A DNA stretch of 64,000 nt from Gaiellaceae bacterium (GTDB taxonomy: Bacteria; Actinomycetota; Thermoleophilia; Gaiellales; Gaiellaceae): positions 1,545 to 65,544 of the forward strand of contig DASYAO010000147.1 in the NCBI GenBank assembly GCA_036501285.1. The letters are read 5' to 3'. This document shows, one piece after another, positions 34,916 to 64,000 of this stretch (position 1 is its first letter; each line of letters opens with the position of its first letter). The notes beneath the pieces are model-generated. The model was given only the letters and a program-made list of their open reading frames with translations. It did no database searches and had not been told where the DNA came from. The position numbers were made by a program, and so were the translations under genes.

Positions 34916-34916
34916 G

Positions 34917-39649: not shown

Positions 39650-42600
39650 CTAGATCGAGACGGTGACGCTCTTCGACTGGTTGCTCGTGAGGCCGAGCAG
39701 CGGCTCGGTCTGCGCCGCCGTGAGCGCGTGCTTGCCCGACGTGAGCGTCGTCACCGTCTCCGTCCAGGCCCCACCGACGCAACCCACGGCGCTGCCCACA
39801 GTCGCGGCGCCCTGGTACAGCTGCACCTTGTCACCGGCCGCGCAGGTTCCGTTCAACGTGACCTTCCCGCCGCTCGGCGTTCCGGCGACGATCGTCGGCG
39901 CACCCGGCACCGCGACGCCGTTGACGGTGATGCTCGAGCTCGCGACGCTGACGAGCGTCGAGACCGGGTCGACCTCGGTCGCGTAGAAGACGTGCGTCCC
40001 TGACGAGAGGTTGACCGCAAACGACCAGGTGCCGCTGGCGAGCGTGATCTTGACCTTGCCGATCAGCGAGCCGTCCTCGTAGATGGAAACGGTGTCTCCG
40101 ACGGTGCCCGTGCCGTTAAGGGTGAATGACAGCGGCGTGTTCGCGGGCGCTGTGACGGTCGGCTGAGGCGTCGGCTTGAAGACGTTGACGACGAAGCTCC
40201 TCGAGGGCCTGCTCGCAATGCCGGTGATGCGATCGGTGTCGACGGCGGTCAGCGTGTGCGCGCCGAGCCCGTTCAGCGTCACCTGCAGCGTCCAGTTGCC
40301 GAGGGCGCTCACGATCGCCGTTCCGATCTTCGTCGCGCCGTCGTAGACGGTGATGACCTCGCCGGCCGTGCCGGTCCCCGTCAGCGTCGTCATCGACAGG
40401 GTGTTGACGGGCCCGTTGATCGTCGGCGCCGGCGGCGGGGTCGGCTGGACGTAGAAGGGCGTCATCACGAAGAACTCGTCGCGATCGCCACCCGGCCCGA
40501 AGTCCGGGTCGAGATCGAGGCTGTACGACGCGATCCACGGGCTCGGCGAGACGAGACCCTGCGCCGAGCCGAAGACCGAGAACTGCCGCGCCCACTGGGT
40601 CATCAGCTGCGCGACGAGATCGCCCTCGTGCTCGACGTTGCCGATTCCGTGGATGAGCTGGCCGCCGGCAAGGAGGCACTTGTTGTCGTTGCCGGGGCCG
40701 TCGCAGCTGACCAGGTTGTCGCCGGTGCCGACGGTGACCGTGTCGTCGCCGCTCTGGGCGAAGACGACGTTGCTGCCGTTGCCGGCCGTGATCGTGTCGT
40801 TGCCGCCGGAGATGTCGGTGTTGTGCTGATTGTCGAGCGCGCCGGGCAGGTCGCCCCACCAGCCGCGGTCGTCGACGTCGTGCGGATGCGAGGCCATGTC
40901 GACGACGGCGTTGAGGATGTCGTCGGCATCGGGCTTCGCGTGGGCCCACGGCGGCGTCGGCGGACCGTTCGGAGGCAGCACCTCGTTGGTCGCGACGTCC
41001 GCGAGGTTGTCGCCCCAGACGAGGTTGTTCCCGTCGCCGAGCGTGATCGTGTCGCTACCGAGCGTGACGTTGTCGCCGGGCGCATGGTCGGGTCCGAACG
41101 GCGGGCCGAACGGCGGACCAAAGGCAGGCCAGAGCCAATTGCCGGACCCAGGCGGGCCGCAGCAGGGCCACGGCCACGGACCGGGCCACGGGCCATGCGG
41201 CCCGCACGGGCAGAGCCACGGCCCCGGCCAGACGAGCGGTGCGGGGCTGCCGTCCGGGTTCTGGAACAGCGGCTTGCCGCCGAGCGAGATCGTGACCGAC
41301 GGCGTCTCGACGAGGTAGTCGTCGCCGACGACCAGGTTGTTGCCGCTCGCAGTGTGGCGGAAGAAGTAGGAAATCGTGTCGTCGCCGACGTTCAGATTGT
41401 CGACGTGGTACGTGAGCTCGGTCGCCGGCTTGCCGTTCTTCTGCACGACCGTCGAGATCTGGTCGAGCAGATGGTGCTGGTCGGTCACGAGCTCGCGTCC
41501 GACGAGCAGCAGACCGTCACTGGCGGTGTCGAGCGCGTCGACGATCGCGTCGGACTCGTCGGCGAGCCCGACGTTCGTGAGGATGTTCGGCGCCAGGATG
41601 CTCAGGTCGTCGCCGACGATCGTATTGGACCCGTCTCCGAATGAGATCGAGTCGTCCCCGATGTTGAGGGTCGCATCGACGACCGTGTTCGTCAGGGGCG
41701 GCGCCGGCGTGCCGTCGGTGGCGACCTCGGCCACTTCGATACCGGCAGTGAGCACTGCGAATTCCGCCGTCGCCGTCAGCAGCGTCGCCGCCATCTGCAG
41801 CCCGGTGAGAACGGTCGCGGGGTTCGTCAGGTCGACCGTCTGCGAGAACTCGGTCAGATCGTCGCCGACGATCAGGTTCGTCCCGTTGCCGGCGGCGATC
41901 GTGTCGTTGCCGTCGAGCTGGCCGAGATGGTTCGCGATGTCGGGGACGAAGCTCGCGACCGGCGCCCACTGCGTGCCGCCGGCGCCCGGGATGTAGTTGG
42001 CGGACGGCAGCCCGGCCTCGTCACCTGTCAGCTGCGGGAGGATCGCGTTGAAGGCGTCGACGTCGTCATTCGGCACGACGGACGTCCACGGGAACACGAC
42101 ATTCCCGCTCAGGCCGTCGGCGGCGCCGAACGGACCGCCCGGGCTCTGCAGGAGCAGGCCGTTGGCGACGTTCGGTGCGTTGCCGTCGGAGGTGTCGATC
42201 GTCGCGTTGTCGCCGACGACGGTGTTGTTGCCGTCGCCGACCGTGAGGACATCGTCGCCGGTGCCACCGGACAGGAAGCTGTTGCCGCTGCCGTCGACGA
42301 GGAGGTCGTTGCCGCCCTCACCGAAGAGTTGGTCGTTGCCCTCGCCGCCGTAGAGCTGGTCGTTCCCGTCGGCAGCGAGCTGGATGGTGAGCAGATCGAG
42401 GTTCCACGAGCCGTCGGGGTTGAGGACCGGCATGCCGTTCGCGTACTGGACGGCGAGGAGGAGCAGGCTGGCAGCATCGAGCTGCTGCTCGAGCGCGACG
42501 GTCGGAATCGGATTCGTCCAGCTCGGCGGCGGGCCGGTGAAGGTCAGCGGGATCGTCGCGGTGACCGTGCCGACTTCGAGCAGCTGGATGTTGTTCTGCG

Positions 42601-45600
42601 GCGCCGCGATCGTGCCGGTCGGCAGCGGCTCCGGGCCGCCGCGCGGGGTGACGACGCCGAGGTCGCCGATCAGGATGTCGTTGCCGGCCTCGCCGTAGAG
42701 CGTGTCGTTGCCGAGGTCGCCGTGGAGTTCGTCGTCGGCCGGCCCGCCCCAGATCGTGTCGTTGTCGTTGCCGCCGTAGATCAGGTCGTTGCCGGCTCCG
42801 GTCGGATCGGTGGACGAGGTGATCGTCGGGACGCCGGCGGCCGAGAAGTCGACCTCGCCGTTGTCGCCGACGAGCAGGTCGTCGCCGTCGTCGCCGTAGA
42901 TCGTGTCGCCGGCCGTGCCGCCGAAGACGATGTCGTTCCCGTTGTTGCCATGGATGATGTCGCCGCCACCGTCCGCGGGGTTGGTCGTGAACGCGCGGGT
43001 CACCGACTGGTTCAGGACGCCGTAGCCGGACGCCACCGCTGAGCCGAAGTCGACCTCACCGTTGTCGCCGAAGATCAGGTCGTTGCCGTCGGCGCCGTTG
43101 ATCACGTCATTGGCGTAGCCGCCCAGGATCACATCGTTGCCCGCGCCGCCGTCGATCACGTCGTTGCCGCCGTCGGTCGAGTTCGTCGTCAGGGTGGAGA
43201 CGAGGGTTCCGAGCAGGTTCCCGGCATCCGACCGGTGGACGATGCCGTCGTCGCCGAGGATGACGTCGTTGCCCGGGCCGCCCTGGATCGTGTCGCCAAG
43301 CGGGCCGCCGAGGATGATGTTGTTGCCCGTGCCTCCGGTGATCTTGTCCGCGCCGCCGATGCCCGGGTTCAGCGTGAAGATGTCGAAGTCGCCGGACTTG
43401 CCGCCCTCGTCGACTTGGCCGTTGTCGCCGAGGATGATGTTCGTGCCGGCCGGCGTGAGGATGGTGTCGCCGCCGGTGCCGCCGAGGATGATGTTCGAGC
43501 CGCCGAGCGCGGTGATCGAGTCGCCCGCGCCGGTCGTGCCGTCGGCGTCGGCCGTCTGCACCTCGAAGACGTTCTCGGCCGCTGTGCCGTCGCGGAAGAC
43601 CGTGCCGTTGTCGCCGAGGACGATCGAGAAGCCCGAGCCGAGCGTGATCTGATCTGAGCCGAACCCGCCGAGGATGACGTTGTGCGTGCCGTTCAGGTTG
43701 TCGAGACCGGCCGTGATCACGTCGTTCCCGCCGAGTCCCGGCTGCGTCGTGAGGATGTCGTTCTCGGTCGTGCTGTTCAGCGTCACCATGCCGTTGTCGC
43801 CGAGGATGATGTTGTTGCTGCCGCCGTTGGCCGAGATGTTGTCGGCCCCGACGCCGCCGAGGATCACGTTCGTGCCACCGTTGGAGATGACCGTGTCGTT
43901 GTCGCCGGTGGGCGACGTCGTGTCGGTCGTGGCGACCTGGGTGATCTGCGCCAGCGTGCCGAACCCGATGCTGCCGCCGACGCGGCGGACGATGCCGTTG
44001 TCGCCGAGCACGACGTTCGTGCCTGAGCCGATCGTGATCCGGTCGGCGCCGACTCCACCGATGATGATGTTGCTCGTCAGGTTGGTGTTGCTGTCGGTGC
44101 CGGCCGTGATCAGGTCGTTGCCGCCGAGCGGGCCGGTACACGTCACGTCGTTCGGGTCGTCGGCACACGGCGTCGAGAAGATGTCGTTGTTGCTGGCGTT
44201 GTTCAGGTTCACGACGCCGTTGTCGCCCAGGATGATGTTCTGGCTGCCACCCAGCGCCTGGATCGAATCGGCGCCGACACCGCCCAGAATCACGTTCGTG
44301 CCGCCGTTCGAGACGATCGTGTCGTTGCCGCCGGTCGCGCTTGTCGTGTCGAGCGTGTAGAGCTGGACGACATCGGTGATCTGCCCGAAGCCGATGTTGC
44401 CGGCCTTCCGATGGATGAACCCGTTGTCGCCGAGCACGATGTTGTCGCCGGAGCCGATCGTGATCTGATCGGCGCCGAAGCCGCCGACGATGATGTTCGT
44501 CGTCGCGTTCTTGTTGTCGGTGCCGGCCGTGATCACGTCGTTGCCGCCGAGGGACAGTTCGGTCGAGGAGATGTCGTTCGCGACGGCGTTGTTCAGGTTC
44601 ACGATGCCGTTGTCGCCGAGGATGATGTTCTGGCTGCCACCCAGCGCCTGGATCGAGTCGGCGCCGACACCGCCGAGGATCACATTCGTGCCGCCGTTCG
44701 AGATGATCGTGTCGTTCGCCCGCGCCAGGTCGACGACGTCGAGCGTGTAGATCTGGACGACGTCCGCGATCGTGCCGAAGCCGATGTTCCCGGCGTTGCG
44801 GTGGACGAAGCCGTTGTCGCCGAGCACGATGTTGTCGCCGGACCCGATCGTGACCTTGTCCGCGCCGAAGCCCCCGATGATGATGTTCGTGGTCGCGTTC
44901 TGGTTGTCGGTGCCGGCCGTGATCACGTCGTCGTCGCCGAGCGACAGATCTGTCGAGTAGATGTCGTTCGAACCGGTGTTGTTGAGGTTCACGACGCCGT
45001 TGTCGCCCAGGATGATGTTCTGGCTGCCGCCCAGCGCCTGGATCGAATCGGCGCCGACGCCGCCCAGGATCACGTTGGTGCCGCCGTTCGAGACGATCGT
45101 GTCGTTGCCGCCCGTGAAGCTCGTCGGGTCGGTCGTGTTGATCTCGATCACGTCGGCGATCGTGCCGAAGCCGATGTTCCCGGCGTTGCGGTGGACAAGA
45201 CCGTTGTCGCCGAGCACGATGTTGTCGCCCGACCCGATCGTGATCTGGTCGCTGCCGACACCACCGATGATGATGTTGACCGTCGCCTTGGCGTTGTCGG
45301 TGCCCGCCGTGATCACGTCGTTACCGCCGAGCGGGCTCGAACAGGTGAACGTCCCGTCGCCGCACGGGCTGGAGAAGATGTCGTTCGACCCGGCGTTGTT
45401 CAGGTTCACGACGCCGTTGTCGCCCAGGATGATGTTCTCGCTGCCGCCCAGCGCCTGGATCCCGTCGGCGCCGACGCCGCCCAGGATCACGTTCGTGCCG
45501 CCGTTCGAGACGATCGTGTCGCCGTCGCCCGTCGAGCCCAGAACGTCGGTCGTGAACACCTCGACGATCTGGGCGATCGTGCCGAAGCCGATTTCGCCGC

Positions 45601-48600
45601 CGACCCGCTCGACGCGTCCGTTGTCGCCGAGCATGACGTTGTCGCCGGAGCCGAGGGTGATCGAGTCCATTCCGACGCCGCCGATGATCACGTTGCTGCT
45701 CGCGTTCGCATTGTCGACACCGGCCGCGATCACATCGTTGCCGCCAAGCGGAGTCGTGCAGGTGAACGTCCCGTCGGCGCACGGCACCGAGTAGATGTCG
45801 TTGTTGCCGGCGTTGTTCAGGTTCACGACGCCGTTGTCGCCCAGGATGATGTTCTGGCTGCCGCCCAGCGCCTGGATCCCGTCGGCGCCGACGCCGCCCA
45901 GGATCACGTTCGTGCCGCCGTTCGAGACGATCGTGTCGTCGCCGCCTGTCGCGCTCGTCGTATCGAGAGTCGTCACGGAGACGATGTCTGCGAGGCTGCC
46001 GAAGCCGATCTTGCCGCCGGTACGGCTGATGTAGCCGTTGTCGCCGAGCACGACATTGTCGCCGGAGCCGATCGTGATCTTGTCGTTGCCGAAGCCGCCC
46101 ACGATCACATTGCTCGTCGCGTCTTCATTGTCGATGCCGGCCGTGATCGTGTCGTCGCCGCCGAGTGAAAGCTCGGTCGAGAAGATGTCGTTCGAGCCGG
46201 CGTTGTTCAGGTTCACGACGCCGTTGTCGCCCAGGATGATGTTCTGGCTACCGCCGTTGGCGGAGATGAAGTCGCCCGCGACCCCGCCCAGGATCACGTT
46301 GTCGCCGGCGGCGCTCGTGATGCAGTCGACGGCGCCCGTCGCCGATGTCGTGTCGGTCGTGAAGACGCTGAGGATCGTCTCGCTCGGCGCCGGGCCGCGG
46401 TCGACCTCGCCGTTGTCGCCGAGGATCACGGCGTCGCCGGTGCCGGCCGTCAGCGTGTCGGAGCCGAAGCCGCCGATGACGATCGAGACGCCGTCGCCGG
46501 CGGTGATCGTGTCGTTGCCGCCCTGGTCGATCGCGATCGACTTGATGTCGTTCGGGCCGCTGACGTTGTTGAGCGCGACGCTGCCGTTGTCGCCGAGCAG
46601 CACGTCATAGCCGGAGCTGCCGACGATCGTGTCGCCCGCGGCGCCGCCGATGATCACGTCGTTCCCCGTGCCGCCATCGACGGTGTCGGGGGCGCCGAGG
46701 CTCGGGAAGGTCGATGTGACGAAGATCGGGATCCCCGCGGCTGCGAGTACCGCGCCGCTGTCACCGAGCTCGACGTTGTTGCCGGGGGTCCCGGCGAGCG
46801 TGACGCCCGGCTGCTGGTCGCCGTAGACGGAGTCGCTCGCGCCTTCGCCGATCAGGATGTCGCTGCCGCCGTTGCCGACGATCGTGTCGGTGCCGTCGAT
46901 CCCTTGCGAGACGCTCAGGACGACGAAGTTGTTCGACACGGGGATGTTCGAGTCGTCGCCAAGGCCGCCGCCGCCGCGGATCGCCTCGACGCCGGCCGTC
47001 GAGCCGATCGTGACGTTGCCCTGGTCGTCGAAGGTGACCGCCGACGGGTTGTCGACGAAGTCGATCCGGCCGCGGTCGCCGACCAGGATGTCGTTCCCCT
47101 TGCCGCCGGTGAGCGTGTCGTTGCCCGCGCCGCCGAAGACAACGAGCGGCAGCGACGACCCGGAGCCGTCGAAGACGTCGTCGTCGGCCGGAGCGGTCTG
47201 CGGGAACGTGAAGGTCTGGCTGTAGATGTGGGTGATCTGCACGAGCACGAGGGCCTGGAGCGTGGGCGCCGCGCCGCTGAAGACGATCGTCCCGTCGTTC
47301 GCGATCGTGGCCGCGACCGGCGAGCCGTTGACCGTCACCAGGAGCCCGTCGCCCGCCGAGTACGGGTTCGTAAGCTTGTGGCTCGTGCCGTCGTAGACGA
47401 ACTCCTGCGTCGTCTTGTGCTTGTCGTTCACCGTGACGTAGTCGCCGGCAGCCGGGCTGATCGTCAGCGCGACCGCGTTCAGCGACGGGATCAGGGTGTA
47501 CTCGTCGGACGAGAGCAGCGTGCCGTCGAGCGACGCCGTGACGACGTCGGCCGTCGTGTTGTAGTTGCCATAGAAGACCGGCTGGGTAAGCGCCTGGTAG
47601 CTCTCGTACGCGCCCTGGAGGTCGGCGACGAAGAAGCCACCCTTGGTCGAGTCGAGGTTCGCCGTGACCTTGTCGTCGCCGAGACCGGTGTTGAGCGTGG
47701 TGATCTCGGTCACGCCCGGCGTCGAGTGGACGCCGTTGACGGTGACCGTGTCGGCGCCGAAGCCGGTCCAGAAGGTGATGCCGCCGCCGAGATCGCCGCC
47801 ATGGCTTGCACCGAAGGTGATCGCCGCGGGAGCGAGGCCGGTGACGCCGCCGGTTTCGAGATCGATCGTCGGGCAGGTCGTCCCCACGTGTGCCTCGACC
47901 GTCGCGCAGGTTGCCGCGCCCTCGTCGCTGACCATCAGCGACTGGCCCGTACCGGCGCCCTCGTCGATCGCGAGCGTGCCGAGGATGCCGTCGGTGACGC
48001 CCGTCAGGTGGTCGGGCAGGTCGCCGACGCTCGCGTTCGCCTGCGATGAGACGTAGACGTGATCGTTGCCGCCGCCGGTGTTGAGGTTCGTCGTCGTGCC
48101 CGCGGTCGTGCTCTGGACGTTGAAGACGTCGTTGCCGTTGCCGAGATCGACGTCGAGGGTGTTGGCGCCGTAGTACTGGATTCCGCTCTCCTGGTTCGAG
48201 ACCGTGGCGGTGCCCTTCGTGAGACCGGATGTGTCGATGTAGGCGATCGAGGCCTTCGCGAACGCTCCCCGGAAGACGATCTGGTACGAGCTGCCGTGCT
48301 GCTCGACGGCGACGTTGTCGGTGAAGGGCAGCGCCGGGTTCGTGTTGTTCGGGTTGAGGATCGCGCTCACCGAGGCCAGCAAGGCCGACGCGGAGATGCC
48401 AACCGGGAGCGGGCCGGTGATGTAGTCCTGGAGCACGCCCTGCGAGTTGGGCAGGACGAAGTGGAGCTCGAAGCTGCCGGCGAGGTTGCCGGTCGCATCC
48501 GGCGTCAGGTCGATCGTCTGGACGTTGTCGAGACTCGGCGAGCGCGTGCCGTCGTCGACGAGAGCCGTCTGCACGCTCGCGGTCGCGCCGACCGCCGCCT

Positions 48601-51600
48601 TGAGCGTGCTGCCTGCGATCGCCGTGCCGACGCCTTGCAGCTTGCTGAGGTCGAGGGAGTACCCGACGCCGCCGACGACGACCTCGAACGCGTTGTTCGT
48701 ACCGCTGACCGTGATCCCCGAGATCCCGAAGACCTTCTGGAGCGCTGCCTGCACGTCCGGGGCCGTCGGGTTCGGCGAGAGCGTCGCGTCGCCGAAGCCC
48801 GGCGCGGTGATCACGAACGGCTGGGTCTGGCCCGCCGGCAGCGTGAGTGTCCACGTGCGCACCCACTGGAGCTGGTCGAAGTGCTTGCCCGCGCCGTCGC
48901 CTGCGAACACGATGGTGTAGGTCACCTGGTTACTCGCCGAAGTCGCGGTGACCGAAATGCCCGTGAGGCCGTAGAGCGTGTCGAGCGCCTGCGCCATGGC
49001 GGCGGCCGACGCCGCGAGGGCGGCCGGCGTGAGCGACGTGGGATACGTGAGCGTGACCGTGCTGGTGCTGCCGAGGTCGGGCGCCAGCAGCTCGAAGTTG
49101 CCGCTCGCGGCAGTGATGGTGACCGTCTGCTCCTCGGCCACCGTCGGCATCCCGAGACCGGTCAGCGTCGTGTCGGTCAACGTGCCGGTGGTCGAGCTCG
49201 GATCCTTCGAATCGTCGACGACGAGCGTGTCGTTTCCGGTGCCGGTGTCGATCGTGAGGAGGCCGGCGATCCGGTCGACGTTGCCGCCGTCACCGACAGT
49301 CACGGTGTCGCTGCCCGAGCCGGTGTCGACCGTCGTGTGGCCGGAGACGGTCTCGACGTTGATCGAGTTGTTGCCGTTGCCGGAGACGACCGACGTCGTC
49401 GCCTGACTCGTGCCGTCGATCGTGAAGGTGTTGTTGCCCTTCCCGAGATAGATGTTGACCGATTCGAGCGCCGAGTAGCTGATCCCGCCGGGGATGCTGA
49501 GGCCGCCGATTACGGTGTCGCCGCCCATGCCGAGTCCGGTGATCGTGCTCTCCGTCAGCGTCCCGTTGAGGTTGTTCGGATCGGCGGTGTCGTAGACGTT
49601 CAGCGTGTCGACCTGTTGCGTCTCGTTCACCGTGGTGTTCGGGTTGAGGGGAGCGACGTGGTACGGGTCGCCGGCGCTCGGGGTCTCGGGCTGGCCGTTC
49701 TGGTCGACGTCCCAGCCGGTCGTGAACGTGACCTGGGTCCCGGAGACGAGCGGCAGGTAAGTCGAGGTGACGCCCGCGGCGAGCCCATTCGTCAGGTCGC
49801 CGATCGTGCCGCCGCCGTTCCCCGTCGTCGAGAACGAGTCGGTGCCGGTGCCGCCCGTGAGAGCCCACTGGTCGGTCGAGCCGCCCGCGGTCGTGAAGCG
49901 GTACGACGCGAGCGTCCAGTCGAGGCCGCATTCGGTCGTCTCCGTCGGCGCCATCACGCAGGCGGGCGTGCCGCTGACGATGCCCTGGCCACCGCCGACC
50001 TCGGTGTTCGTCTTCGGGACGATCGTGAAGCTCACGTCGAAGGGGTTGCCGGGCCGCGAGAGCAGCAGGTCGCTGTCGCCGAGGAGGCCGGAGCGGAGCT
50101 GCGCGTTGAACGCGCCGGGAATCTGCTCGAGCAGCGCCTCGGCGAGGAGCGAGGCGATGTCGTTCGCCGTCGTGACCTCGACTGAGTAGGTGTGGCCGTC
50201 GACCGTCAGCTCCCACGTGTCGCCGAGGTTCGGCACACCTGAGAAGGCGACGTCGGCGGAGACCCACTTGAGCGCCGAGGCCGCGGCCGACACGACCGGC
50301 GTGCCGTAGAAGATCGCCTGACCGCTCAGCTGCTTCCCGTCGAACGTGAGGTTCACCGGGATGCCGGTCGCGCTCTCGAGCGACAGGATGTCCTGCGAGA
50401 CCGAGCCGACGTTGAGTGTCTCGCCGGCGGCCGAGCCGTCGAGGAACTCGACGGTGTACGAGTAGCTGTTCATCCGCGGGTCGAAGCCGGGGCGCTCGCC
50501 GTCCGTCGCGCTCACGTTCGTCGCGTTGAGGTCGGTGATCGTCGCGTCGCCCGCGTCGTTCGTGCCCGGGCCGTTCGTGCCCGCGCATGGCGTCCCGCCG
50601 ACGGCGCAGGTGAGCGTCCCGTCCGCGAGCGGAAGGTTCGTCTCACCCGGAAGCATCAGCGGGCTCGTCAGGAGCGACTGCGTCTGCGCCGAGTTGCCAC
50701 CGACGATCGTCACCGGGCCGCGGATCTGGTCGGTGGTGTTCGGGAGCGGCGGGAAGGAGAGCGCGTCGCCGCCGTCGACCGTGAAGTCGGGAACGCCGAC
50801 CACCGTGACCGACTGGAACTCGTCCCAGTCGGTCGAGTCGAACACGAGCTGCGGCGTGACGGTGGCGCCGCCCTGGCTGTCGGTCGTGATCGAGAACCTG
50901 GCGGCGACCTGGCCGCCGCCGACGCGGCTGATCGTGATCACGCGACCGGAGCTGCCGACGTTGTAGGTCTTGACGTCGATCTTCGACGCGATCGCCTGAG
51001 CGATCGAGGCCAGGGTGTCGCCGTAGATCGCGGTGTACGAGTAGACGTGGCTCGAGTCGAGGGTGAGCGTCCAGGTCTCGTTCATCGCCGGGAGACCGCC
51101 GAGTCCGACCGAGATCGAGGACGCATCGACCGATGCCGTCGCCGCGCCCTCGGTCGAGACCGTCAGGTACACCGAGGTCGGCTTGCCGTCCCGGCGCGAA
51201 ACCGAGATCACCGGTGCGGTCGAAGTGCCGCCGACGCCGGCGTTGTAGACGCCGGGTGCCGGCATCCCCTCGAGCTCGTTCGCGACGTCCTGCAGGCTGT
51301 CGCCGCTCTGGACGGTGTACGAGTACGCCGTCCCGTCGACGTTGAGCGTCCAGACCTCGTTCAGCGCCGGCGTCCCGCTGAGTGTCACGGACGAGCTCGT
51401 GTCGGTCCCGGTCACTGTCGCCGTGCCCTGGGTGTCGCCCGTGATCTGGAAGCCCGCCCGGAAGCTGCCGCTCTTCGCGTGGACGACGAGCGTCTCGGTC
51501 GTCGTGTTGACCGTGATCGTGTAGTCCGCGGTCGGAATCTTCGCCGCGAGCGCGTTCAGGATCGTCGTCAGCGTATCGCCGTCCTGGACGGTGTAGGAGT

Positions 51601-54600
51601 AGGAGGCGGAGCCGAGCGTGATCGTCCAGACCTCGCCGGTCTTCGGCGTTCCGGCGAGCTCGAACACCGCTTGCGGCGTGCTGACGCCCACCTGGATGAA
51701 GTCGTTCTGGCCGAAGTTCGAGTTCGGGTCGAAGGCCTCGGCCGAGTCGTAGGTCGGGGTCGCCTGCGGGACGACGTCGATCGTCACGGTCTGACTTCCC
51801 GTCAGCGGCGCGGTGAGCACGACCTGGTAGGTGCCGCTGTCCGGCGCCTTCGTGAGCTGCGTCTGGTACGCCGGGTCGTCGCTCAGGTTGTTCGCGATCT
51901 CGAACCGGCTCGTGATATCCGGCGCCGTCGACCAGCCCGGGCCGGCGATCGTGAAGAGCTGCCGCTCCGGGTCGTAGCCCGAGATCGTCGCCTGCTCGCC
52001 GACGCCGGTGCCGCTGACGATCGTCACCTCGGAGCCGACGAAGCTGAACTGGTTCGGATTCGTCGGATGGCCCTGGAGCGAGACGAACAGCTGGTAGTTC
52101 ATCCCGGTCGGGACCTGCTGGATGCCGTTGGTCTTGAACGTGTTGCGGACGCCGGCGGTGCAGAAGAACCCGAAGATCAGCTGGCCGCCGTCGGTGCACT
52201 GATCCCACGTGACGTTCGCCGCGACCTCGAGCTTGTAGGTGCCGGGCTGCGTGAAGACGTAGTCGATCAGCGGATCGGTGAGCGGATCAAGAGCGTTGCT
52301 CGGCTTGCCGACGTTGATGTTCGCGCCGAAGCTCGACCAGGTATCGGTGCACGTGCGTGAGCCGCCGGAGAGGTTGCAGGTGCTCGTCGCAAGCAGGTTG
52401 TTGTTCGCGTCGAAGAGCTCCAGCACCGGCAGCGCCGTGAAGCCGAGCGACTGGTTCTGCGAGAAGATCGGCGCGAGGAACGGGAAAAGCGAGACGAGCC
52501 AGGCGAACGCCGGATTGACGGCCGCAACATTGATGGCGCCCGTGACGTCGCTCGCGTCCGCGAGGTGGAACGAGCCCTCAGCGGAGCCGTTGCGCTCGGC
52601 GAGCGTGAAGACGAACGGGTCGACCTTCGACTCGTCGGTGAGCGTGAGCGTTCCGTCGGTCGTCCCGACGGCGTCGACGGCCGACTTGCCGGTGAGGAAC
52701 GCCGTGTGCACGAGGCTCGCGATTCCCTGCGCGATCGTGCCGAGCGTGCGGAGAGCCTCCTCGCTCGTCGGCAGCGGCAGCACCTGGTACGTGTACGTCG
52801 CGCCGTCGATCGTGAGCACCCAATTCTCGTTGTCGACGTAGGAGCCGGTCAGGTCTACGGTCGCTGTCTGGTAGTGGCCGCGAGTGTCCTCCGTCGCGCC
52901 CGAGTCGAGGCTCGAGGCGATGCGGAGCTCGGTCACCGAGATCAGGGCCGGGGCGGCCGGCGTCTTGAAGACGAGGTCGTCTCCGCCCGTGCCGGCCGAG
53001 ACCATGAAGTCCGAGTGGAGCTTCGCGAGCAGCGCCGCGATCGGGTTCGGTGCGGCTTCGGTCGTCGTGACGGTGTACGGCGTGCCGCCGACGGTCACCG
53101 TCCAGGTCTGGCCGGAAACGAATCCGGGCAGGCCCGGCTGGAGCTGCACGTCCTGCGTCCAGACGATGCTCGGCGTTCCGCTGACCGTGGCATTCGGCGC
53201 GTTCGGGTTGCGGGTGACCGCAAAGCTCGTGTTCAGCGTGCCGCCGGCGACCTTCGTCACATAAAGCGTCGAGCCGCTCGAGAAGGCGGTGTAGCCGGAG
53301 GCCGCGTCGATGGCGAGCGCGAGCGCGTGCGCGATCGTCGCGGTGGTGTCGCCCGCCACCGGGTAGTGGTACGGCGTTCCGTCGACCGTGACCGTCCAGA
53401 TGTCATCTGCATTGATGGCGGCAGCGCTGAGGGCCAGCGTGGTCGTCGCCGCGTTCGAGACGCTTGCGGTACCACCGGAGACGGCTCCCGCGCTCGTCGT
53501 GAAGCTCGCGCCTCCCACTGCGGTGATCGTGATCACGGCGTTGGCGCCGACCTGGCTGACGATCGTCGACGACTTGAGCTGTGACTGGAGCGCGGCCGCG
53601 ATTGTGTCGAGCGTGTCGCCGGTGCTGCCGTCGTCGACGGTATAGGTCGCTGACCCGGTGACCCCGCCGGTGACCGACACCGACCACGTGTCACCGGCGA
53701 CGGCATTGCCGGAGAGCGTCTCGACCAGAGCGGCCTGGTTCGCCGGCAGCTGCTCGACGACCTCGAGCGCGACCGTGATGCTGCCCGTGCCCTTGGTGCC
53801 GGTGATCGTCAGCGTGCCGTTGCTGTTCGTGACCGTGAAGTCCCCTGTGAAGTCAGCCGCGAGCGCGGATGCCGTTGTCGCGGTTTCTGTCTCGGTCGTC
53901 GCGCCGCTCTGGCTCAGCGTCAGCGTCAGCTGGTCGCCCGAGGCCACCGACGGCAACGCGTACGTGCCGCCCGAGGAGATCGAACCGTTATGGGCAGTCA
54001 CGGTGAGCGAGGCGCTGATTGCACTCCCACCGAGCTTGACGATCACGAGCGTCGGCATGCCCGGCGCGAGCGCGACTGTGTAAGCGGAGCCGATCGCGTT
54101 CGCGATCGTCGTGGCGTCGGCGCCCGCATTCGCGCCCGTCGCCGTGTACGGCGTCCCGTCGAGGGTCAGCGTGACGCTGTCGCCCACATACTGCTCGAGC
54201 GATACGACCTGCGCGGTCGCGGGACCGGGCGTGGCCGTGCCGCCGGCCGTAGGCGAGATGACGATCGTAAAGTCCGGCCCACTCGCGCGAGTGACCGTAA
54301 CGGAGTCACCGTCGACCTTCGCCGTGAACCCGCTCACGCCGTTGATCGCGCTCGCGAGGTTCTGAGTGACAGCGCCCGCATCGGCGGCGCCCGCGATGTT
54401 GTTCAGGGTCGCAATCGGTCCGTTCGTATCGGAGAGCGTCGCCGTCCACGTGTCGGCCGAGCCCGAGGTGACCGTGATCGTGTGCGAGAACGCGGTGCCG
54501 GTGCTCGCCGCGCCGGACGCCTTGACCGCGATCGTGCCGGTGAACGGCGTCTGGCTCGAGACCGTCAGCGCCGCGCCGACCGAGTTGACCGTGTAGCCCG

Positions 54601-57600
54601 TGCCGTGGAACGCGGCCTTGAGCGCGGTCGCGAGATCGGTCCCGCTCGTATCCGCGGCGGGTGCGGAGAAGGTCAGCGCAGTGCCGCCCGCGGCCGGCGT
54701 CAGCGAGACCGTCCACTGCTCGCCGACGAGCGGGCTTCCGGGCAGCGCGAAGGTCTCGCTCGTCCACGGGACAGTGGGCACCTCGCCTGCGACGGGCGTG
54801 CCGGTGATCGTCGCGTAGCCCTGCGGCGCCGAGCCTGCGACCGAGAACGAAACCGGCGTACCGCCGAGGTTCGTCAGCACGATCGAGGTGCCGGAGGGCG
54901 TACCCCCGGCCGCAGCCGCGAGGCACATGGCAAGTCCGGTCAGCGATTCCCCGCCCGGGCCGACCAGGCACTGATGGGCGGTCGAGCCGACGGTGAGCGT
55001 CCAGACCTCACCCGGGTTGGCCGAGCCGGCCAGATCGACCTCGGCGCTCGTGAAGTCAACGGGCGTCGTGTTGTCGGACTGGAGCGGCTCGGTCGAGGTC
55101 GTGATCGTGTCGGCCGCGTGCGCGAGCTGGACGGCGCCCGAGACGGTCTGACCGATCAGGTTGAAGCCGAGCGTCGTGTTCGAGATGTTCAGGTCGGCTC
55201 CGGCGGGGCCCGCGTTCTGGACGGTGACGGTGTACCCCGACACCGGGCCGGTCTGGATCAGGTTCGCGAGCGCCTGGGCGACCGTGGCGAGCGTGTCGTT
55301 CGCGCCGGCCATGTACTGGTAATCGTGGTCGCGGAGACCGAGCGTCCAGATGTCGCCCGCGTGCACGGTGCCTGTGAGGTGCAGGCCGACCTGGGTATAG
55401 AACGGGCCGGTCGCGCCGGTCGAAGAGGAGACGCTCTCGCTCGTCGGGGTCAGCATGTCCTGCGTCACCTGGAACGAGAAGACGTCGAAGCTGCCGTCGC
55501 CGGAGCCCTGGATCTCGGCGTACGGCGTCTGCCAGTCGATCGTGCCGCCGAACTGCGCGTCGCCGGCGCTCGTGTTGAAGAAGTTGTAGAAGTCGGCGCC
55601 GTTCGGCTGGCCGTCCTGGCCGAGCGGCTCGATGCTCTGCGCCGTCCCGAGCGTGTTGTTCGTCGAGTTCGACTGCACCGGGGCAGGAGCGAAGACGAAT
55701 CCGGCGATCAGGTGTCCGGGCGCGGAGACCTGCAGCTGGTAGGTGACGCCGTTCGGGATCGCGTTGGCGTAGAGCCAGCCGGAAACCTCGATGTAGTACT
55801 CGCCCGGCGTCGAGAACGCGTACTGCAGGAAGTCGTCGAGCTCGCTGGCGCTGCCGCCCGCGCCCTGGGAGGTCAGCGAATGGCCGGCCCCCGAGGCGAT
55901 CAGCGTGCCGGTCGAGTCGTAGAGCAGCAGGCGGCTCGCCCAGATCGGCGTGCCGTTCAGGAAGTACTGGCCGTTGTCGACGTCGAAGGTCGCCGGCGTA
56001 CCCGTCGCCTTGATCGCCGCGACCATCGCCGGCGTGACGTCGAACTTGTAGTAGTCGTTCGCGCCCGTTCCGGTCGCGTCGACGGTGATGTGCTGGACGT
56101 CGGTCGCGCCGAGGATGTTCGGATCGGGGTTCAGGCCCCACGTGCCGAGGTCGAGATCCTGGGCGGTCGAGATCGAGTCGTGGAAGTTGATCGAGTTGAT
56201 CTGCGACGTGCCGATCGTGCCGTTGAAGCAGTTGACCGGCGTCGTCGACACGGTGCAACCGGAGTTCGCCAGCTCTTCGACGAAGCCGTCGCCGACGACG
56301 ACGAACCCGGTCGGCTCGATCACGTTGGTCGAACCTGTCGGCTGGACGACGAGCACGTCGCCGGTCGTGTCGTCGGTGACCTCGACGTCCTCGGGAGAGA
56401 CGAGGGTCGAGCTGTTCGCGCCCGCGACCCACGAGTACAGAACCGCGGTTGCCGGGTTGAAGACGCTGCCCTTGTCGAGCGTGATCGTCCAGGTCTCGCC
56501 GATCGGCACGTTCTGATTCGCGTTCAGAGAGACGGCCAGGGTCAGCTTCGACCACGAGCTGCCGAGCGTCCCGAACACCGGCGCGCCGGCCGCTGTGCCG
56601 CCGTTCGGCTGGTAGGCGAGGGTCACCATCAGCTCGGTGTTGTCGCGCCGCTGGACGAGGATGTTGCTGCCAGAGGCTCTCGCGACATAGACGCCGCTCT
56701 GGGAGACGAGCTTGGCGAGGGCGGTCGCGATATCCGAGTTCATCAGCGTCGTCGTCTGCGACGGGCAGCTCTGCGTCGAGTCGAGGCACGGCGGGACGAC
56801 ATAGACGAACGGGGAGCCGTCGAGGTTGAGCGTCCAGGTGTCGCCCGTCGTCGGCGTGCCGGTGATCGGCGCCGTGACGGTGCCCTGATACGCGTGCGTC
56901 GACGCGTTCGAGTCGACCGTGAGCATCCCCGAGTCGCCGGCCGTCCAGGTGGCGTTGAACGCCGGTCCGGTCACGGTGACCTCGTTGCCCGAGACGCTCG
57001 TCTGGAACTGCCCGGTCGGGTCGCCCGCAACCGCGTTGGCGAGGCCGGATGCGACGTCGCCCGGCGTGACGCCGAGGAACGCGCCGCTGTCGGCCGGGTC
57101 GATCGCGTTCGAGATCCGCGAGAAGTGGATGCCCTTCACCGTCGAGCCCGGCGTCGCCCGGACGTAGACGAGCTGGATCATGTTCCAGGGGTGCGTGTCG
57201 TCGAAGGTGAGATCGACCACGGTGCCCCAGGTGAGGCCGTCGGCGGAGATCTGCGTGTCGCCGTCGCTCGTCGCCTCGAAGGTGACCGGCCCGACGGGCT
57301 GCTTCGTGAGGACGACGGCGTAGCTGTCGGATGCCGGCAGGAAACCGGGTTGGTTGGTCGAGACGCCTTCGGAAACGAGCAGCTGGTCTTCGACGCCGCC
57401 CTTGCCGGCGTTCGCGGTCGGGTCATACGGTGCGACGACGACGCTTGCCGTGTCGGCGTCGATCACGTCGACCGCGACGGTCTGCACAGGGATGCCGTCG
57501 TAGGGATCGCCGTCGACGGCGGTCGACCCTTCGACGACCGTGTGCTGGATCGTGACGCTGCGGTCGCCGGTGGCGACGCCGTCGGGTTTCGCCGCGACCG

Positions 57601-60600
57601 TCACGGTCACCGTCTGCGGCATGAACCAGTCGTCCGGCGTGAAGACCAGGGGCGTGCCGCCGAGCTGGCCGTTCAGGAAGATGTTCTGTACGCCTTCGAG
57701 CAGCTGGGACTGGCTCGGCGGCGTCGCGGACGCGGTCACGATCACGTTCTTCGTCGGCGCTTGCGTGAGCACGACCGTGTAGGTGTTGACGACGAGGCTC
57801 TGCAGGGTCGGAGAACCGTTCTCGAAGACCTGCAGCGGCGCGATCTGCGTGATGACGACGCCCGGCGCGTTCGCGTCTCCGACGTTCGCCGAGATGCCGG
57901 ACACCGTCGCGTTCGCGTATGCCGCAGCGTCCGCCGCCGACACGAGCTGTGTAATCAGGCCGCTGTGGCCGTTCAGGCTGTTGCTGACGACCGTGATCGG
58001 CTGGTCGGTGCCGGTGCCGCCGATATCGAAGGTGTCGCTGCCCTGGCCGCCGACGAGCTCGAGGTCGACCGTCGCGCTCGTGCTCTGGACGTAGAAGGTG
58101 TCGTTGCCGGCGCCGCCGTCGACGATCACCTTCTCGACGTTCGTGAAGCTCACGTTGAGGCCGGCGCCGAAGATGCCCTGGTCGGTGATGACGAACGTGT
58201 CGCCGAAGTCGGTGCCGATGACGACGATCGTGTCGAAGCCGCCGCCGCCGTCGATGTGCACGGGGGCGTCGACCGTGTAGCTGATGAAGTCGTTGCCGGT
58301 GCCGCCGTTGATGTTCGTGAACGGCGCGTCCGGATCGTTCGGGTTGACCTTGACGAACGCCTGAACCGTGAACGTGTCGTCGCCGTCCTGGCCGTAGAGG
58401 AAGACGTTCGCGAGGTTGTGGTAGACGGTGAACGTGTCGTCGCCGTTGCCGCCGTAGATCGTCGTGGCGAAGCTGACTCCGTTCGACAGGAAGCCGTCGG
58501 TGGTCTGCGTCGTGGCGAAGTAGTCGGCAGGCAGAAGGCCGTTCTCCGGGTTCGTCCCGTCACGTGCCGAGGCGTAGAGCTGGGCGACCTGGAAGTTGTC
58601 GTTGCCGTCGCCACCGAAGACCGTCGTCGGCACGAGGTTGTCGTCGAGCAGGAAGTTGTCGGTCGCGATGCCACCGAAGACTGTCAGGCCGCCGTTCAGC
58701 GAGCCGTCGTAGTTCACGCGCTCGACGACGCCGGTCAGGATCGGCTGGCCGTTCGCGTCCGTCCCGAACGCCGCGACCATGCCCGTGCCGGCAGCCTGGT
58801 TCGCACGGAAGAGGTAGTACGTCGGCGCGTTCGTCCCGAAGATCTCGAGCTGGTTCACGTCGCTCGTCGTGATCACGTCGGAGACGTTGATCACGGTCTG
58901 CGCGACTCCCGTCGAACCGGCCTCGCCGGTCAACCCGATCTCGTACAGGTCGCTGCCGGTGCCGCCCTGCAAGTTGAGCGTGCCGCCGATGCCGTTGACG
59001 AACGTCTCGTTGCCCGACTGGTCGTAGTTGACCGCGATCAGGTCGTTGCCGTTCCCGCCCTGGATCGTCGCAGTGCCGCCCGTCGAGCGGATGTAGATCG
59101 TGTCGTCGTAGTTGTTCAGCACCGGCGTCTGATCGCCGCCGTAGACGTTGAGGACGCTGCCGACGGGCGTCGAGTCGACGTAGAAGTTGTTCTCGCCGTC
59201 ACTCAGGCGCACGGTCAGGTTCTTGAAGTTCGAGTAGGAGATGCCGGCGGCATCCATGCCGAGCCCGAAGACGCTGCTCTCGTACAGCTGGCCCGCGCGC
59301 GTGCCCGTCTGCGGCGTCAAGTCGTTGCGGTCGTAGAGCTCGAGCGTGTTGTTGCCGCCGGGGCCGCCGTTCAGGCTCAGCAGGCCGCCGCCCTGGATGC
59401 CGTTGAGGGTGCTTCCCACCTTCGGGTCGGAGCCGGCGAGGAACGCCGTCGTCGAGCCGATGCGCACGTCGTTCGTGCCGCCCTGCGCGTTGACGTTGGT
59501 GGTGAACCCGATCGACTGGACCTCGACGTCGTCGTCGCCGCCGCCGGTGTTCACCGTCGTCGTCGTCCCGCTCGCGGTGCTCTCGACGATGAAGGTGTTG
59601 CCGGCGTTGCCGAGGTTCACCGTCAGCGTCTGGAGGCCGCTGTAGTCGAGCATCGAGGTGGGCGAGCCGAAGATGCCGCCGAGCTGGGAGCTCGAGAGGG
59701 CGCCGAAGTTCGACGCCGGATCGGTCGTGTCGTCGACCAGCACGGTCTCGGCGTCGTTTGCGTTGCCGTTGACCGTCAGCGTCGAGTTGATCAGGTTCGC
59801 GTTGCCCTTGACGTTGCTGAACCCGAGCGGCGCCGGCCAGAAGCCCGCCTCGCTGCCGACGTAGACGGTGTCGGGGCCGGCGGTCGAGTCAATCGTCGTC
59901 GGGCCCTGGATCGACCGCACCGCTACCTCGTTGTCGCCGGTGCCCGTGACGACGGTGGTCGAGCCGGTGTGGGCGACGGTGTCGTCGATCGTCGTCTGAT
60001 CGGCGCCGTTGCCGAGGTTGAGCGTGACTGAGCCGAGACCCCAGTAGACGATGTCGCCGGTCACGCCGCCTGCGCCGCTCGTCGACAGGCCGGTGATGGT
60101 CAGCTGGTCGACGGCCTGCGTCTGCTGCACCGGATCGGCGTTCGTGTAGTCGACCTGCTGGCCGCCCGTGTAGAGGATCGGCTCGCTCCCGAGGGTCAGG
60201 TCCGGCGCCCCGGCTGCGTACGTGACCTCGGTGCAGGTGTTGCCCGTGCACGTGTAGTCGGGCTCACCGCGAGCGTGGAGGACCGGGCCGGTGTAGGTGA
60301 CGGTGATGCTCTCGCCGAAGCTCGCGCTGTTCTTGAGTGCTGACTGCGTCGGGTTGAGCACGAGCGTCGTGCCGTTCGCGCCGCCGATCGTGAAATCGGT
60401 GCCCAGCGTCAGCTTCGTCGTGCCGATGAAGACCTGCAGCGTGCCGGCCGCAGGCTTCTCGTTCAGCGTGATCGTCTGCGTGACCGGCTGCGTGGTGCCC
60501 TTCGGCGGGTTCCAGTAGAAGCTCTCGCGCACGGTCTGCGTCGTCTGCGCCGGCGTGTAGACGATCACGTTGCCCTTCGTGTCGAACTGAAGCGCGGAGC

Positions 60601-63600
60601 CGGCGCCGAGGATCGGCTGGCCGGCGACGACCGCCTCGCTGCCGCCGTAGAGCACGATGTCGCCCGCCGCATGCGTCGCCGCGCGCTCGATCTCGAGCTT
60701 CACGGTGACCGTGTTGCACGTCTTGTCGGCGATGCAGGCCGCCGTGACGCCGGCGCCGAGCGTGACCGTGCCGGCGCTCGCGTCGAACGAGTAGTCGTTC
60801 GGGTCATTCGGCAGGAGGTAGATGTTCGTGCCGTCGTAGACGAGCACGAAGACCTGGTCGTCGGCCTCGAGCGTCTGGTTGCCGGTCAGCGTCAGGACTG
60901 CGCCCGCGAGGCTCGTCAGCGTGAAGGACGGTGCGGTGAACGACGAGGCGCCGATCGCGACGAACGAGCCGTCCGCCTGCTCGAGGTCGTAGACCTGCTG
61001 GCCACGGTCTGCGATCTCGGCCTGGCCGGGCTGGAACGTGAACGGCGTGTTGCCCGTGTAGACCGGGTTGCCGTTCTCGTCGACGACCGGCTCGCCGCCG
61101 AGCTCCTCGACGTTCGCTCCGCGCTGCTCGACGACCGTGTCGCAGGCCGTGTGCAGCATCGGAGCCGTCGTCGTGTACGTGATGATGTTGCCGTTCGGGT
61201 CGAGCAGCGGCCGGCACGTGAACAGGTCGACCTCGGGATCGCCGATCGTGTGGAGCATCGGCTGACCGGTGAGCGGGTCGAGCACGGGCTCGCCGCCGAA
61301 GTAGTGCTCGGCCGTCATCGTCTCGCTGCCGCCCGGCAGGCCGTCGGAGTTCAGCACGGGCCGGCCGTTCTGAAGCGTGTCGACCGGAATCGTGTAGCTC
61401 GTCAGGTTCGCCGAGATGTCGTCCGCCGAGCCCGTGTCGTCGATGATCAGCTTGTCCTGGCCCGAGGTCACGCTCGAGATCGAGTCCGCGGTCTGCAGGA
61501 ACGGCTTCAGCTGCGACTCGAAGATCGGCACGAGCGAGACCGAGTTGGTCGGGAAGATCCGGTTCAGCGGATCCGGGGTCGAGGGGTCCGCGGTCTCGCG
61601 GCCGGACGGGTCGATGAAGAGCTTGCTCGGGTTGTCGGCCGGGGTGAAGTCGGTCGTGTAGGCCTTCGTGTTGATCGCGCGCACCTGCACCTCGTCGATC
61701 CCCCACGTCACGTCGTCGTTGTTCAGCTGGCCGACGAAGCCGAGTGTCTCGCTCGACGTCTGCGCCATGAACTGGAAGCTGTACGAATGCCAGCTCGTGT
61801 CGTTCACCGGCTTGTTGAAGCCGTGGACGAGGTCGGTCGAGTTGAAGGTCGGCGTTGCCGAGGCGCTCAGGTAGACGCCGAGCGTGACGTTGTTCGCATC
61901 GCCGTACTGCGACAGGAGGTTCGCGTACGAGAAGTCGACCTGGTAGATCGCGCCCGGCACGAGCCCGGTGATCGTCTGGCTCATCGTCGGCGTCGCGCCC
62001 GGGAAGTTGTCGAGGAGGTAATAAGCGCTCCCGCTCACGCCGCCTGTCGACTGCCAGCCGCCGGCAGCGGCGATGACCGATGTCGTCCAGCCGCCGCCGT
62101 TCGTGCCGCCGCCGGTGCCGTTGGCCGGCACCTGAGTCGCGAAGTTGCCGTCGGCGAGCAGGTTTGCGCCCATCGACTGGAAGACCTGGTCGAACGCCGG
62201 GTCGACGTACACCTGCTGAGCGCCCGTCGCGCCCTTTGTCGACGGCAGGATCACCGGCAGGTTTGCGACGTGCGTCGTCGGGTCGGTCGCGAGCGTCGTC
62301 TCGTTGCCCTTGGTGTCCATGTAGATGTTGACCGCGCCCGTCGCGCCGAACGCCAGCAGCCTGATGTCCTGGACACCGGTCGACGGGTCGGTCGTGACGT
62401 TCCCGAGCGTGTCGATGTAGAGCGGCGTCGACCCGTTCGTCGTCGAGATGTCTTCGATCGCGATCGGCGGCTTGGTCGTCGTCGGATTGCCGTTCGCGTC
62501 GAGGTAGAGCGGCACGGCCCCGGTCGGCGGGTTGGACGTGAACACCTGGATGTCCTGGATCCCGGTCGCGTTGCTCGTCGTCGGCTTGCCGCCAGCGTCG
62601 AGGTAGAGCAGAACGGCGCCCGTCGTGCCCGCGGGCTCGACCAGGATGTCCTGGGTGCCGGTGTTCAGGATCGTCGGATTGCCGGCGCCGTCGAGGAAGA
62701 GCGGCACCGCATTCGGAGTGCCGGAGGACACGATCGTGATCGTTCCGTCGCCCGCCTGAATCCCGTACTGCTGGATGCCCGACAGCTGGATGCCGAGGAG
62801 CTGCTCGCCGACGACCTGCTGGCCCTGCTGCTGCACGCCGTACTCCGGCACGCCCTCCTGCTGGACGTTGACCTGGACGAGATTGCCGCTGCCGACGGCG
62901 AATGTGATCGTGCGCGTCGTGTCCTTGCCGCCGTTGGTGGCGTCGGTCGCGGTGCTCGAGAAGGTGAGCGTGCTCAGCACTTGCTCGTAGGCGGCAAGCG
63001 ACGCGATGCCGGAGAGCTCGAGCGAGCCGCCGTTGTAGGTCTTCCCGATCGGAACGCCGGGCGCGATCGTCACGTCGAGGACGTCGCCGGCGAGGAAGCC
63101 GTCGGTGATGCTGACGTTGGCGCCGCCGATCGTGCCGCTGACCGGATCGGCGATCGTGACACCGGCTCCGATGGTGATCGTCCCCGGCGTCGCGGTGATC
63201 CCGGTGAGCTTCGTCGAGTTGCCGCCGGCGGCGACGGCGATCGACGCCTCGTCGACGACGCCGGCCTCGACGTCGATCGTGCCGTTGGGCTCGTTCGGGT
63301 CGGTGCAGGTCGTGCCGACGATGCAGAGGATCGGAACGAAGTTGCCCTGGTAGTACGGCTGCCCGTCCGGTGACGTTCCGAGCTGCTGGCCCTGGACGAC
63401 GAGGATCGCGTTGCTCGGGTTCAGGAAGAAGTTGACGAGCGTCTTCTGCGGGTCGGGTAGAGCCGCGATGCCCTGCTGGGTGAGCGCCGGCGAGTTGGTC
63501 GTGAGCGCGTCGGCGCCGTCGATCGTGAGACGGCTCAGGATCCCGCTCAGGTCGGCCGCGCTCGACGAGACGGTCGTCGTGTCGGTACCGGCGCCGCCGA

Positions 63601-63991: not shown

Positions 63992-64000
63992 CAGCTGGCC

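Follow-up and report, generated by a model that had tools for sequence, protein, structure and literature searches.

A tandem array of RTX-derived units with aspartates on one edge, a probable calcium-stabilised stalk in a giant protein

A 64,000-nucleotide stretch of contig DASYAO010000147.1 (the whole of which is called the window here) carries on its minus strand a giant open reading frame (ORF), in which eight long units (nt 43433-46597) follow one another head to tail. We propose that this array is probably a Ca2+-stabilised solenoid of the RTX (repeats-in-toxin) type, with Ca2+ on one edge, and that it forms a length-variable stalk in a giant extracellular protein. The RTX-derived modules would keep the Ca2+-ligating Asp on one edge of the roll only. 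Ca2+ would then form one row along the odd turns (GGxGxD), driving or stabilising folding outside the cell, and the even turns would be tight glycine turns without a canonical Ca2+ site, as in region IV (RIV) of MpIBP from Marinomonas primoryensis and in the second block of LipA. With some three coils in each module, six in each unit and about 48 in the whole array, a rise of 4.8 Å per coil would give a rod of roughly 23 nm, presumably a rigid one. Its most likely role would be that of a Ca2+-stiffened stalk or spacer, whose length may shift through gain or loss of whole units, and C-x6/8-C inserts at some of the junctions may form small surface loops closed by disulfides.

Organisation of the array

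The units were delimited in the windowed protein by the anchor LGDNGxVxLN, which occurs at residues 5802, 5923, 6053, 6192, 6331, 6461, 6591, 6733 and 6857 (nt 46597, 46234, 45844, 45427, 45010, 44620, 44230, 43804 and 43432). All eight lie in a single open frame, and from u1 to u8 they measure 121, 130, 139, 139, 130, 130, 142 and 124 residues (363, 390, 417, 417, 390, 390, 426 and 372 bp). The array and the modules on either side of it are arranged as follows.

46598..47152, minus strand: diverged modules of the array's type, three to four in number, that lead into it (anchors VGDRG at 5640, LGDSG at 5745)
46235-46597, minus strand: u1, diverged end unit
45845-46234, minus strand: u2, core unit
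45428-45844, minus strand: u3, core unit with Cys-pair junction
45749..45784, minus strand: Cys-pair insert of unit 3, PCADGTFTCTTP (Cys 6074/6081)
45011-45427, minus strand: u4, core unit with Cys-pair junction
45332..45367, minus strand: Cys-pair insert of unit 4, PCGDGTFTCSSP (Cys 6213/6220)
44621-45010, minus strand: u5, core unit
44231-44620, minus strand: u6, core unit
43805-44230, minus strand: u7, core unit with Cys-pair junction
44126..44170, minus strand: Cys-pair insert of unit 7, PCADDPNDVTCTGPL (Cys 6612/6621)
43433-43804, minus strand: u8, diverged end unit
42182..43432, minus strand: canonical RTX modules (four turns, GDNG cap, linker; Asp in every turn), PF00353 at 130.4 bits over 10 stretches

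Tandem Repeats Finder (TRF) reports periods of 390 and 417 within 43744-46255 (2.9-6 copies, 74-79% matches, scores 1489-2173), and periods of 27 and 54 bp in the flank at 42206-43525. An eight-unit super-repeat had been placed here by a first-pass annotation of the sequence; TRF and the anchors return its periods, with the landmarks offset by a constant 29 nt. The junction sequences that it quoted are present exactly, both the plain ones (STELSLGG, STDLSLGD) and those with a Cys pair (SVPCADGTFTCTTPLGG, SSPCGDGTFTCSSPLGG, STPCADDPNDVTCTGPLGG). The Cys-pair inserts, on the other hand, do not alternate as had been described and occur in units 3, 4 and 7 only. Equivalent C-x6/8-C loops are carried by two relatives, L001 and P0249, which are introduced below. 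The same module plan spans residues ~5617 to ~7115, on both sides of the array, and its turns become GxGND (canonical) towards the C-terminus.

Homology of the units to RTX modules

Each unit consists of two homologous modules, A and B (hhalign A versus B, 97.3%). Their plan comprises four turns reading xxGGxD, xxGGxN, GGxGxD and xGxGxN, a fifth GDNG turn with an invariant Asp, and a linker of 12-30 residues. In the canonical register module B reads ATGGNDTIV / SNGGTNVIL / GGVGADSIQ / ALGGS(Q)NIIL / GDNGVVNLN and module A reads xLGGNDVIT / AGTD(NxNAT)xNIII / GGFGADxIT / IGSGDNIVL / GDNGFVHRN, each being followed by its linker. The position of the Ca2+-ligating Asp runs D, N, D, N and then the GDNG cap, in both modules and in all core units. 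The earlier parse into GGxNxIxxG turns is frame-shifted with respect to this register, which alternates xxGGxD and xxGGxN. The description of the repeats as Asp-poor holds in relative terms only, with Asp at 9.6% in the array versus 14.8% in the adjacent canonical RTX stretch; the array is richer in Asn.

The gathering threshold of the Pfam family PF00353 (HemolysinCabind) is 23 bits, and a single unit scores 18.0 bits, under that threshold. At E<=10 the 951-residue array still matched no Pfam family. The C-terminal half of the giant protein, taken whole, reaches 114.9 bits against PF00353, with the best stretch outside the array, and NCBIfam gave only partial, far sub-threshold matches to RTX toxin and serralysin families, all of them outside the array. 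Membership of the T1SS-143 repeat family, an example of the NCBIfam repeat-domain models for giant secreted proteins, was rejected, as no NCBIfam match to it was returned.

Profile comparison within the same protein is more telling. Aligned by hhalign with the canonical RTX modules, module A gives a probability of 96.5% (E 9.3e-10) and module B one of 88.8% (E 2.5e-6), and in both alignments the canonical even-turn Asp is paired with Asn. These alignments show common descent of the units with bona fide RTX nonapeptide blocks, and we regard the units as RTX-derived on that footing, although the GGxGxD Asp is not found in every nonapeptide of the array. The degenerate RTX-like character noted at first pass is borne out by the same alignments and by the single-unit score.

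The alternation is a property of the family. In an alignment with 57 homologues, Asp is invariant at the odd turns and in the GDNG cap (53-56 of 55-57 sequences), and the even-turn residue across the alignment is Asn in about 50% and Asp in 25-38%. At the Ca2+-ligating position, whose retention had been put forward as a check, the odd turns keep Asp, and the even turns of the family mostly have Asn.

Searches of the PDB chains with one or two units, and with the unit profile, gave chance-level matches only (PduA, PTS IIA; CyaA block V at E 4.9) and no RTX protein at E<1, so that the unit is not placed by sequence alone. A literature search for the LGDNG motif found nothing relevant.

Predicted structure and calcium binding

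The first-pass annotation had also proposed that the structure be predicted. We ran AlphaFold2 on units 4-6 (410 residues, 63-row alignment) and obtained a beta-roll/solenoid model with a predicted local distance difference test score (pLDDT) of 90.3 and a predicted TM-score of 0.92. The model is all-beta, built of short strands only, 12 per unit, of which two are contributed by each linker; pLDDT falls to 76-81 at model residues 11-30, a segment that includes the Cys loop of unit 4. According to DSSP, the GGxGxD turns alone form six-residue loops, the even turns being two-residue tight turns between longer strands. Register and model thus agree on one Ca2+-type turn and one tight glycine turn per coil of 18-19 residues, which is the arrangement of a one-sided roll.

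In a Foldseek comparison with the PDB, the top match is 3p4g (MpAFP/MpIBP RIV, the Ca2+-dependent beta-helical antifreeze domain of M. primoryensis), with probability 1.0 and a target-normalised TM-score of 0.51-0.57. CyaA RTX blocks rank next, followed by RTX lipases and serralysins. The majority of the leading matches are rolls of the RTX type, and TM-scores are 0.4-0.57. The array is accordingly predicted to adopt a parallel beta-roll/solenoid fold.

Homology to canonical RTX modules would also suit a conventional roll with two Ca2+-binding edges, in which Ca2+ would still be bound by the even-turn Asn and the Asp next to it in GSGDN. Consistent with such a roll, Asp occupies the even-turn position in 25-38% of the homologues and turn 4 of module A reads GDN, with an Asp adjacent. 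We nevertheless hold this to be unlikely: the even turns of the model are not six-residue Ca2+ loops, the one-sided RIV roll is the top fold match, and the edge of LipA block 2 where Asp is replaced carries water in place of Ca2+ (PMC6891781).

The opposite possibility is that the solenoid descends from RTX and has become Ca2+-independent, being held by a hydrophobic core and Asn ladders. The score of the array below the Pfam RTX threshold and its lower Asp and higher Asn content compared with the canonical flank are in line with this, and a monoderm host, if it is one, would presumably have no need of a Ca2+-driven type I secretion system (T1SS) ratchet. Such a solenoid is, however, decidedly unlikely, because the three same-edge Asp per module (turns 1, 3 and 5) are invariant in 53-56 of 55-57 homologues, which come from many phyla, and such an edge would be difficult to account for if its Asp were not ligands.

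We also considered whether the array is a ligand-binding face (for ice, polysaccharide, mineral or a cell surface), with the Cys loops conferring specificity, rather than a passive stalk. Its top structural match is indeed an ice-binding domain, and inserts that differ between lineages recur at the junction (the Cys loops here; VSGPGALGD in a Rokubacteria metagenome-assembled genome (MAG) and in the relative P0250). By eye, however, the units lack the regular, outward-facing Thr/Asx residues of RIV, and the unit number varies freely among relatives, as is typical of spacers; we find a binding face quite unlikely.

The one-edge Ca2+ stalk remains the reading that we favour, and several points weigh against it. 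The Foldseek E-values are weak (best 4.9e-3, none <=1e-3). Shifted repeats of the protein itself entered the alignment given to AlphaFold2 and may have inflated the confidence of the model, which was judged by DSSP and fold matches. The carbonyl oxygen of Asn can ligate Ca2+, so the even-turn edge may not be empty. Finally, the flanking genes look actinobacterial, and in actinobacteria RTX proteins would not be expected to leave the cell by classical type I secretion; the N-terminus lies off the window.

Divergence of the units and soundness of the assembly

The core units (u2-u7) share 67-81% protein identity and 75-86% codon-aligned DNA identity, and the end units (u1, u8) 64-70% codon-aligned DNA identity. 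The near-identical DNA reported at first pass thus overstates the likeness: we counted 8 mismatches where 7 had been given for a 127-nt alignment, and the segment in question is the best-conserved block.

To put these values in context, codon bias alone would give a four-fold synonymous identity of ~55% (0.43-0.65 by residue type). Among the core units the observed figure is 70% in the turn block of module A, 65% in the linker between modules A and B, 82% in the turn block of module B and 86% in the GDNG cap and junction that follow module B. Since synonymous identity is near the codon-bias level outside the module B block and cap, the duplications are old. Recent tandem amplification, the recent expansion of the earlier account, was rejected because synonymous sites are near saturation outside that turn block and the cap and junction after it. 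The pattern suggests patchy homogenisation of one sub-segment, namely the module B turn block with the following cap and junction.

Repeats are a classic source of misassembly, and relatives of this array lie in long-read-like assemblies full of frameshifts, so an assembly artefact or a decaying pseudogene had to be weighed. No exact repeat within the array is longer than 82 bp. Window positions 28418-49458 are matched by a 49.5-kb JGI metagenome contig (3300036780, Ga0376652_0001125) with 7 SNPs and 0 indels, and within the array itself the two do not differ. The 82-bp limit and the identical array in a second assembly indicate that the risk of assembly collapse, raised at first pass, is low, and an assembly artefact is very unlikely. 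With the frame open for 8,116 codons, a GC content of 94% at third codon positions (GC3) and a unit architecture conserved in relatives as well, the joint explanation by artefact or pseudogene has a next to negligible probability. An exact-match DNA scan of metagenome contigs with the array flank, made for copy-number variants, returned no match.

Relatives, distribution and unit number

A word-indexed search found 99 relatives, mostly fragments called "Ca2+-binding RTX toxin-like protein" and carrying PF00353. The novelty suggested at first pass is reduced by this annotation. An exhaustive profile search of 1.84 billion cluster representatives gave 1,322 proteins with a cut-off of E<=1e-3, of which 705 pass E<=1e-10 and 231 pass E<=1e-30; lengths of 2,000-7,700 residues are common among them, with up to 51 matched stretches. 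In a genome scan the unit was found in 39 loci, the best of them in the Rokubacteria MAG (55%) and others in Betaproteobacteria, Methylobacterium/Methylorubrum, Pirellulaceae, Anabaena, Verrucomicrobia, Geobacteraceae and Actinomycetes MAGs. Module spacings across the loci are 55-74 residues, often alternating in pairs. Three relatives show how the array varies.

P0249: ~61% identity to the window; 5 units, namely three Cys-pair units of 141 residues plus u1-like and u8-like ends
L001 (ENA ERZ25039522 contig_70746): 65% identity (fragment P0001); ~13 units, with junctions in the order 5 Cys, 6 plain, 2 Cys; frameshift-rich, long-read-like contig
L002 (Candidatus Rokubacteria MAG, MGCF01000114.1): 55% identity (best segment); two junction types without Cys, STELDLGD and SIVSGPGALGD

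The variable features among relatives are the number of units (5, 8 in the window and ~13) and the junction inserts, of which VSGPGALGD is common to the Rokubacteria MAG and P0250. The copy-number variability expected by the first-pass annotation is therefore real between relatives, and the differences in unit number could serve to mark how giant surface proteins vary in length.

In L001, the closest relative, the giant gene is split by frameshifts into dozens of short called genes. This breakage looks like long-read assembly error rather than pseudogenisation, and breakage of this type makes database homologues show up as fragments of 150-470 residues. In the index of 5.8 billion proteins, all matches to the repeat query are <=467 residues long, which suggests that giant proteins are poorly represented or fragmented there.

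The Rokubacteria locus is collinear with window positions 39650-53900 at 38-41% identity over >4,000 residues. Given the actinobacterial-looking flanks in the window, this collinearity points to cross-phylum transfer of the giant gene or to mis-binning.

The giant gene and its setting

The ORF that bears the array runs from 39650 to 63991 or beyond and is still open at the window end. From nt 64000 the protein has at least 8,116 residues without a stop, is rich in G, T, A, V, D and N, and has its N-terminus off the window; the JGI copy is called at 8,229 residues and is also cut by the contig end. GC content by codon position is 0.60/0.50/0.94, and this pattern identifies the minus-strand ORF as the true frame. 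Antisense coding by the plus-strand ORFs at 43674-44360, 44961-45794 and 46038-46610 was rejected, these being mirror artefacts (GC3 ~94%) of the GC3-94% frame.

39650..64000, minus strand: giant ORF, one open frame (GC3 94%), containing the array
39653..40465, minus strand: triple Ig-like repeat closing the protein C-terminally (Big_3_5 at 18.6 bits, sub-threshold)

The RTX part ends near residue 7273, and the ~840 residues that remain close in the Ig-like repeats, for which the relative P0249 gives clearer Big_6/Big_3_5 matches. The number of these repeats varies too: the window protein has 3 and P0249 has at least 10, several of them near-identical (residues ~3200-3923). Neither an LPXTG sortase motif nor a hydrophobic tail was seen by eye at the C-terminus.

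The protein has 41 Cys, of which 36 form 18 pairs spaced 5-24 residues (for example 88/98, 1089/1095, 2405/2412, 4465/4472 and 7766/7775). Of the other five, four lie together at 7597-7614 and Cys 5893 has no partner. Close pairing of this kind is a hallmark of extracellular proteins whose disulfides close local loops, and an extracellular location is probable.

A low-complexity segment rich in Trp, Pro, Gly and Cys, WPGPWLCPCGPHGPWPGPWPWPCCGPPGSGNWLWPAFGPPFGPPFGP (41051-41248, minus strand, residues 7585-7650), is retained in P0249 and P0250, and a stretch rich in His, Trp and Asp takes its place in the Rokubacteria homologue. At 50801-56863 (minus strand, residues ~2380-4400) lie ~20 modules of ~100 residues each with the motif GDxWTLTLDG..Y.Y.V..GDTL..IA..LA; they have no Pfam or NCBIfam match except a faint LysM fragment, and are also found in the Rokubacteria homologue. 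The N-terminal 4,100 residues hold no Pfam or NCBIfam domain besides a weak DUF642 match. A search of the 5.8-billion-protein index with the first 400 windowed residues (62801-64000, minus strand) returned one weak He_PIG-domain protein only, and an exact-match DNA scan of metagenome contigs with the window end, made to reach the N-terminus, found no match.

The genes that follow downstream on the minus strand encode a LacI regulator, a GH39 protein, a peptide/sugar ABC importer, a glucoamylase-like protein and metabolic enzymes. The cluster directly downstream (28187-39488, minus strand; LacI-GH39-SBP_bac_5-permease-ATPase-glucoamylase-like) is a sugar/oligosaccharide utilisation operon with no evident tie to the giant protein. 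Neither a membrane fusion protein nor TolC, the partners of type I secretion, is encoded in the 39 kb downstream of the giant gene; the upstream side lies beyond the window.

TldD of the window shares 83% identity with a JGI protein and ~70-72% with proteins of Kribbella, Pseudonocardiaceae, Streptomyces and Micromonospora. Judged by these affinities and by the flanking genes, the host is probably an uncultured actinobacterium.

Significance

For annotation and structure, it matters that a long stretch missed by Pfam appears to be an RTX-derived beta-roll all the same. A widespread, unnamed module made of four turns that alternate D and N, closed by a GDNG cap and followed by a linker, may build rods in giant proteins of many phyla, and a dedicated hidden Markov model could capture it. 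If the host is truly an actinobacterium, the array would be a further case of RTX-type coils outside a T1SS context.

A bolder version of the proposal would be that a monoderm actinobacterium displays a surface fibre of >8,200 residues, exporting RTX coils without a T1SS, that the whole architecture, held in common with a Rokubacteria protein, reflects cross-phylum transfer, and that the "two coils + linker" family (~1,300 clusters) is a distinct class of one-edge Ca2+ solenoids serving as length-tunable stalks. We regard this as possible, though doubtful. Current understanding is not overturned by the array, and the unnamed family and the non-T1SS context are the only parts perhaps worth more work.

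Comparison with known systems

Like the giant RTX adhesins of the LapA, MpIBP and SiiE type, the window protein is very large, repetitive and probably surface-exposed, with RTX near the C-terminus and tandem repeats of varying number. In contrast to those adhesins, its bulk does not consist of BIg extender domains, and its RTX part is followed by the ~840 residues with the Ig-like end and not directly by a terminal secretion signal.

With canonical RTX (PF00353; CyaA blocks, serralysins) the array shares the nonapeptide period, the glycine-rich turn and the xUx strand, and the RTX blocks are separated by linkers, as in CyaA. The array differs in being sub-threshold in Pfam, in having Asp in alternate turns only and in the lack of a visible T1SS context. 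Its blocks comprise four to five nonapeptides, compared with six to eight in canonical RTX (PMC6891781).

The loss of Asp from alternate turns is shared with LipA block 2 of Serratia marcescens (2qua), and both 2qua and the Pseudomonas MIS38 lipase (2zvd) are among the fold matches. In those lipases, which are secreted by a T1SS, the blocks are short, single and attached to an enzyme, whereas the window array is a multi-unit super-repeat.

The closest structural parallel is MpIBP RIV (3p4g), an atypical RTX beta-roll with Ca2+ on one side only. As in RIV, each coil of 18-19 residues joins a GxGxD turn of the Ca2+ type to a tight GG turn, the window coil GGVGADSIQALGGSQNIIL having 19. RIV has about 13 repeats of 19 residues. 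Its coils are uninterrupted, unlike those of the window array, where a non-RTX linker coil after every two coils gives rise to the A/B modules and to super-repeats of 130 residues. The array also differs from RIV in having no regular ice-binding Thr/Asx row (by eye) and no detectable sequence similarity (no RTX match at E<1 in the PDB profile search), and its host is probably an actinobacterium and not a Gram-negative with a T1SS. The position in the protein is alike: RIV sits directly N-terminal to a conventional two-sided RTX region of a giant protein (PMC5550230), and the array directly N-terminal to canonical RTX modules.

Neither the variant of the fold nor the class of annotation is new. 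Beta-rolls that lack Asp in every other repeat have been described in LipA block 2, where the key Asp is replaced in alternate nonapeptides and Ca2+ is bound on one edge with water on the other (PMC6891781), and in MpIBP region IV (PMC5550230); to this uncommon one-edge variant the window array would add a form built of two-module units in variable number.

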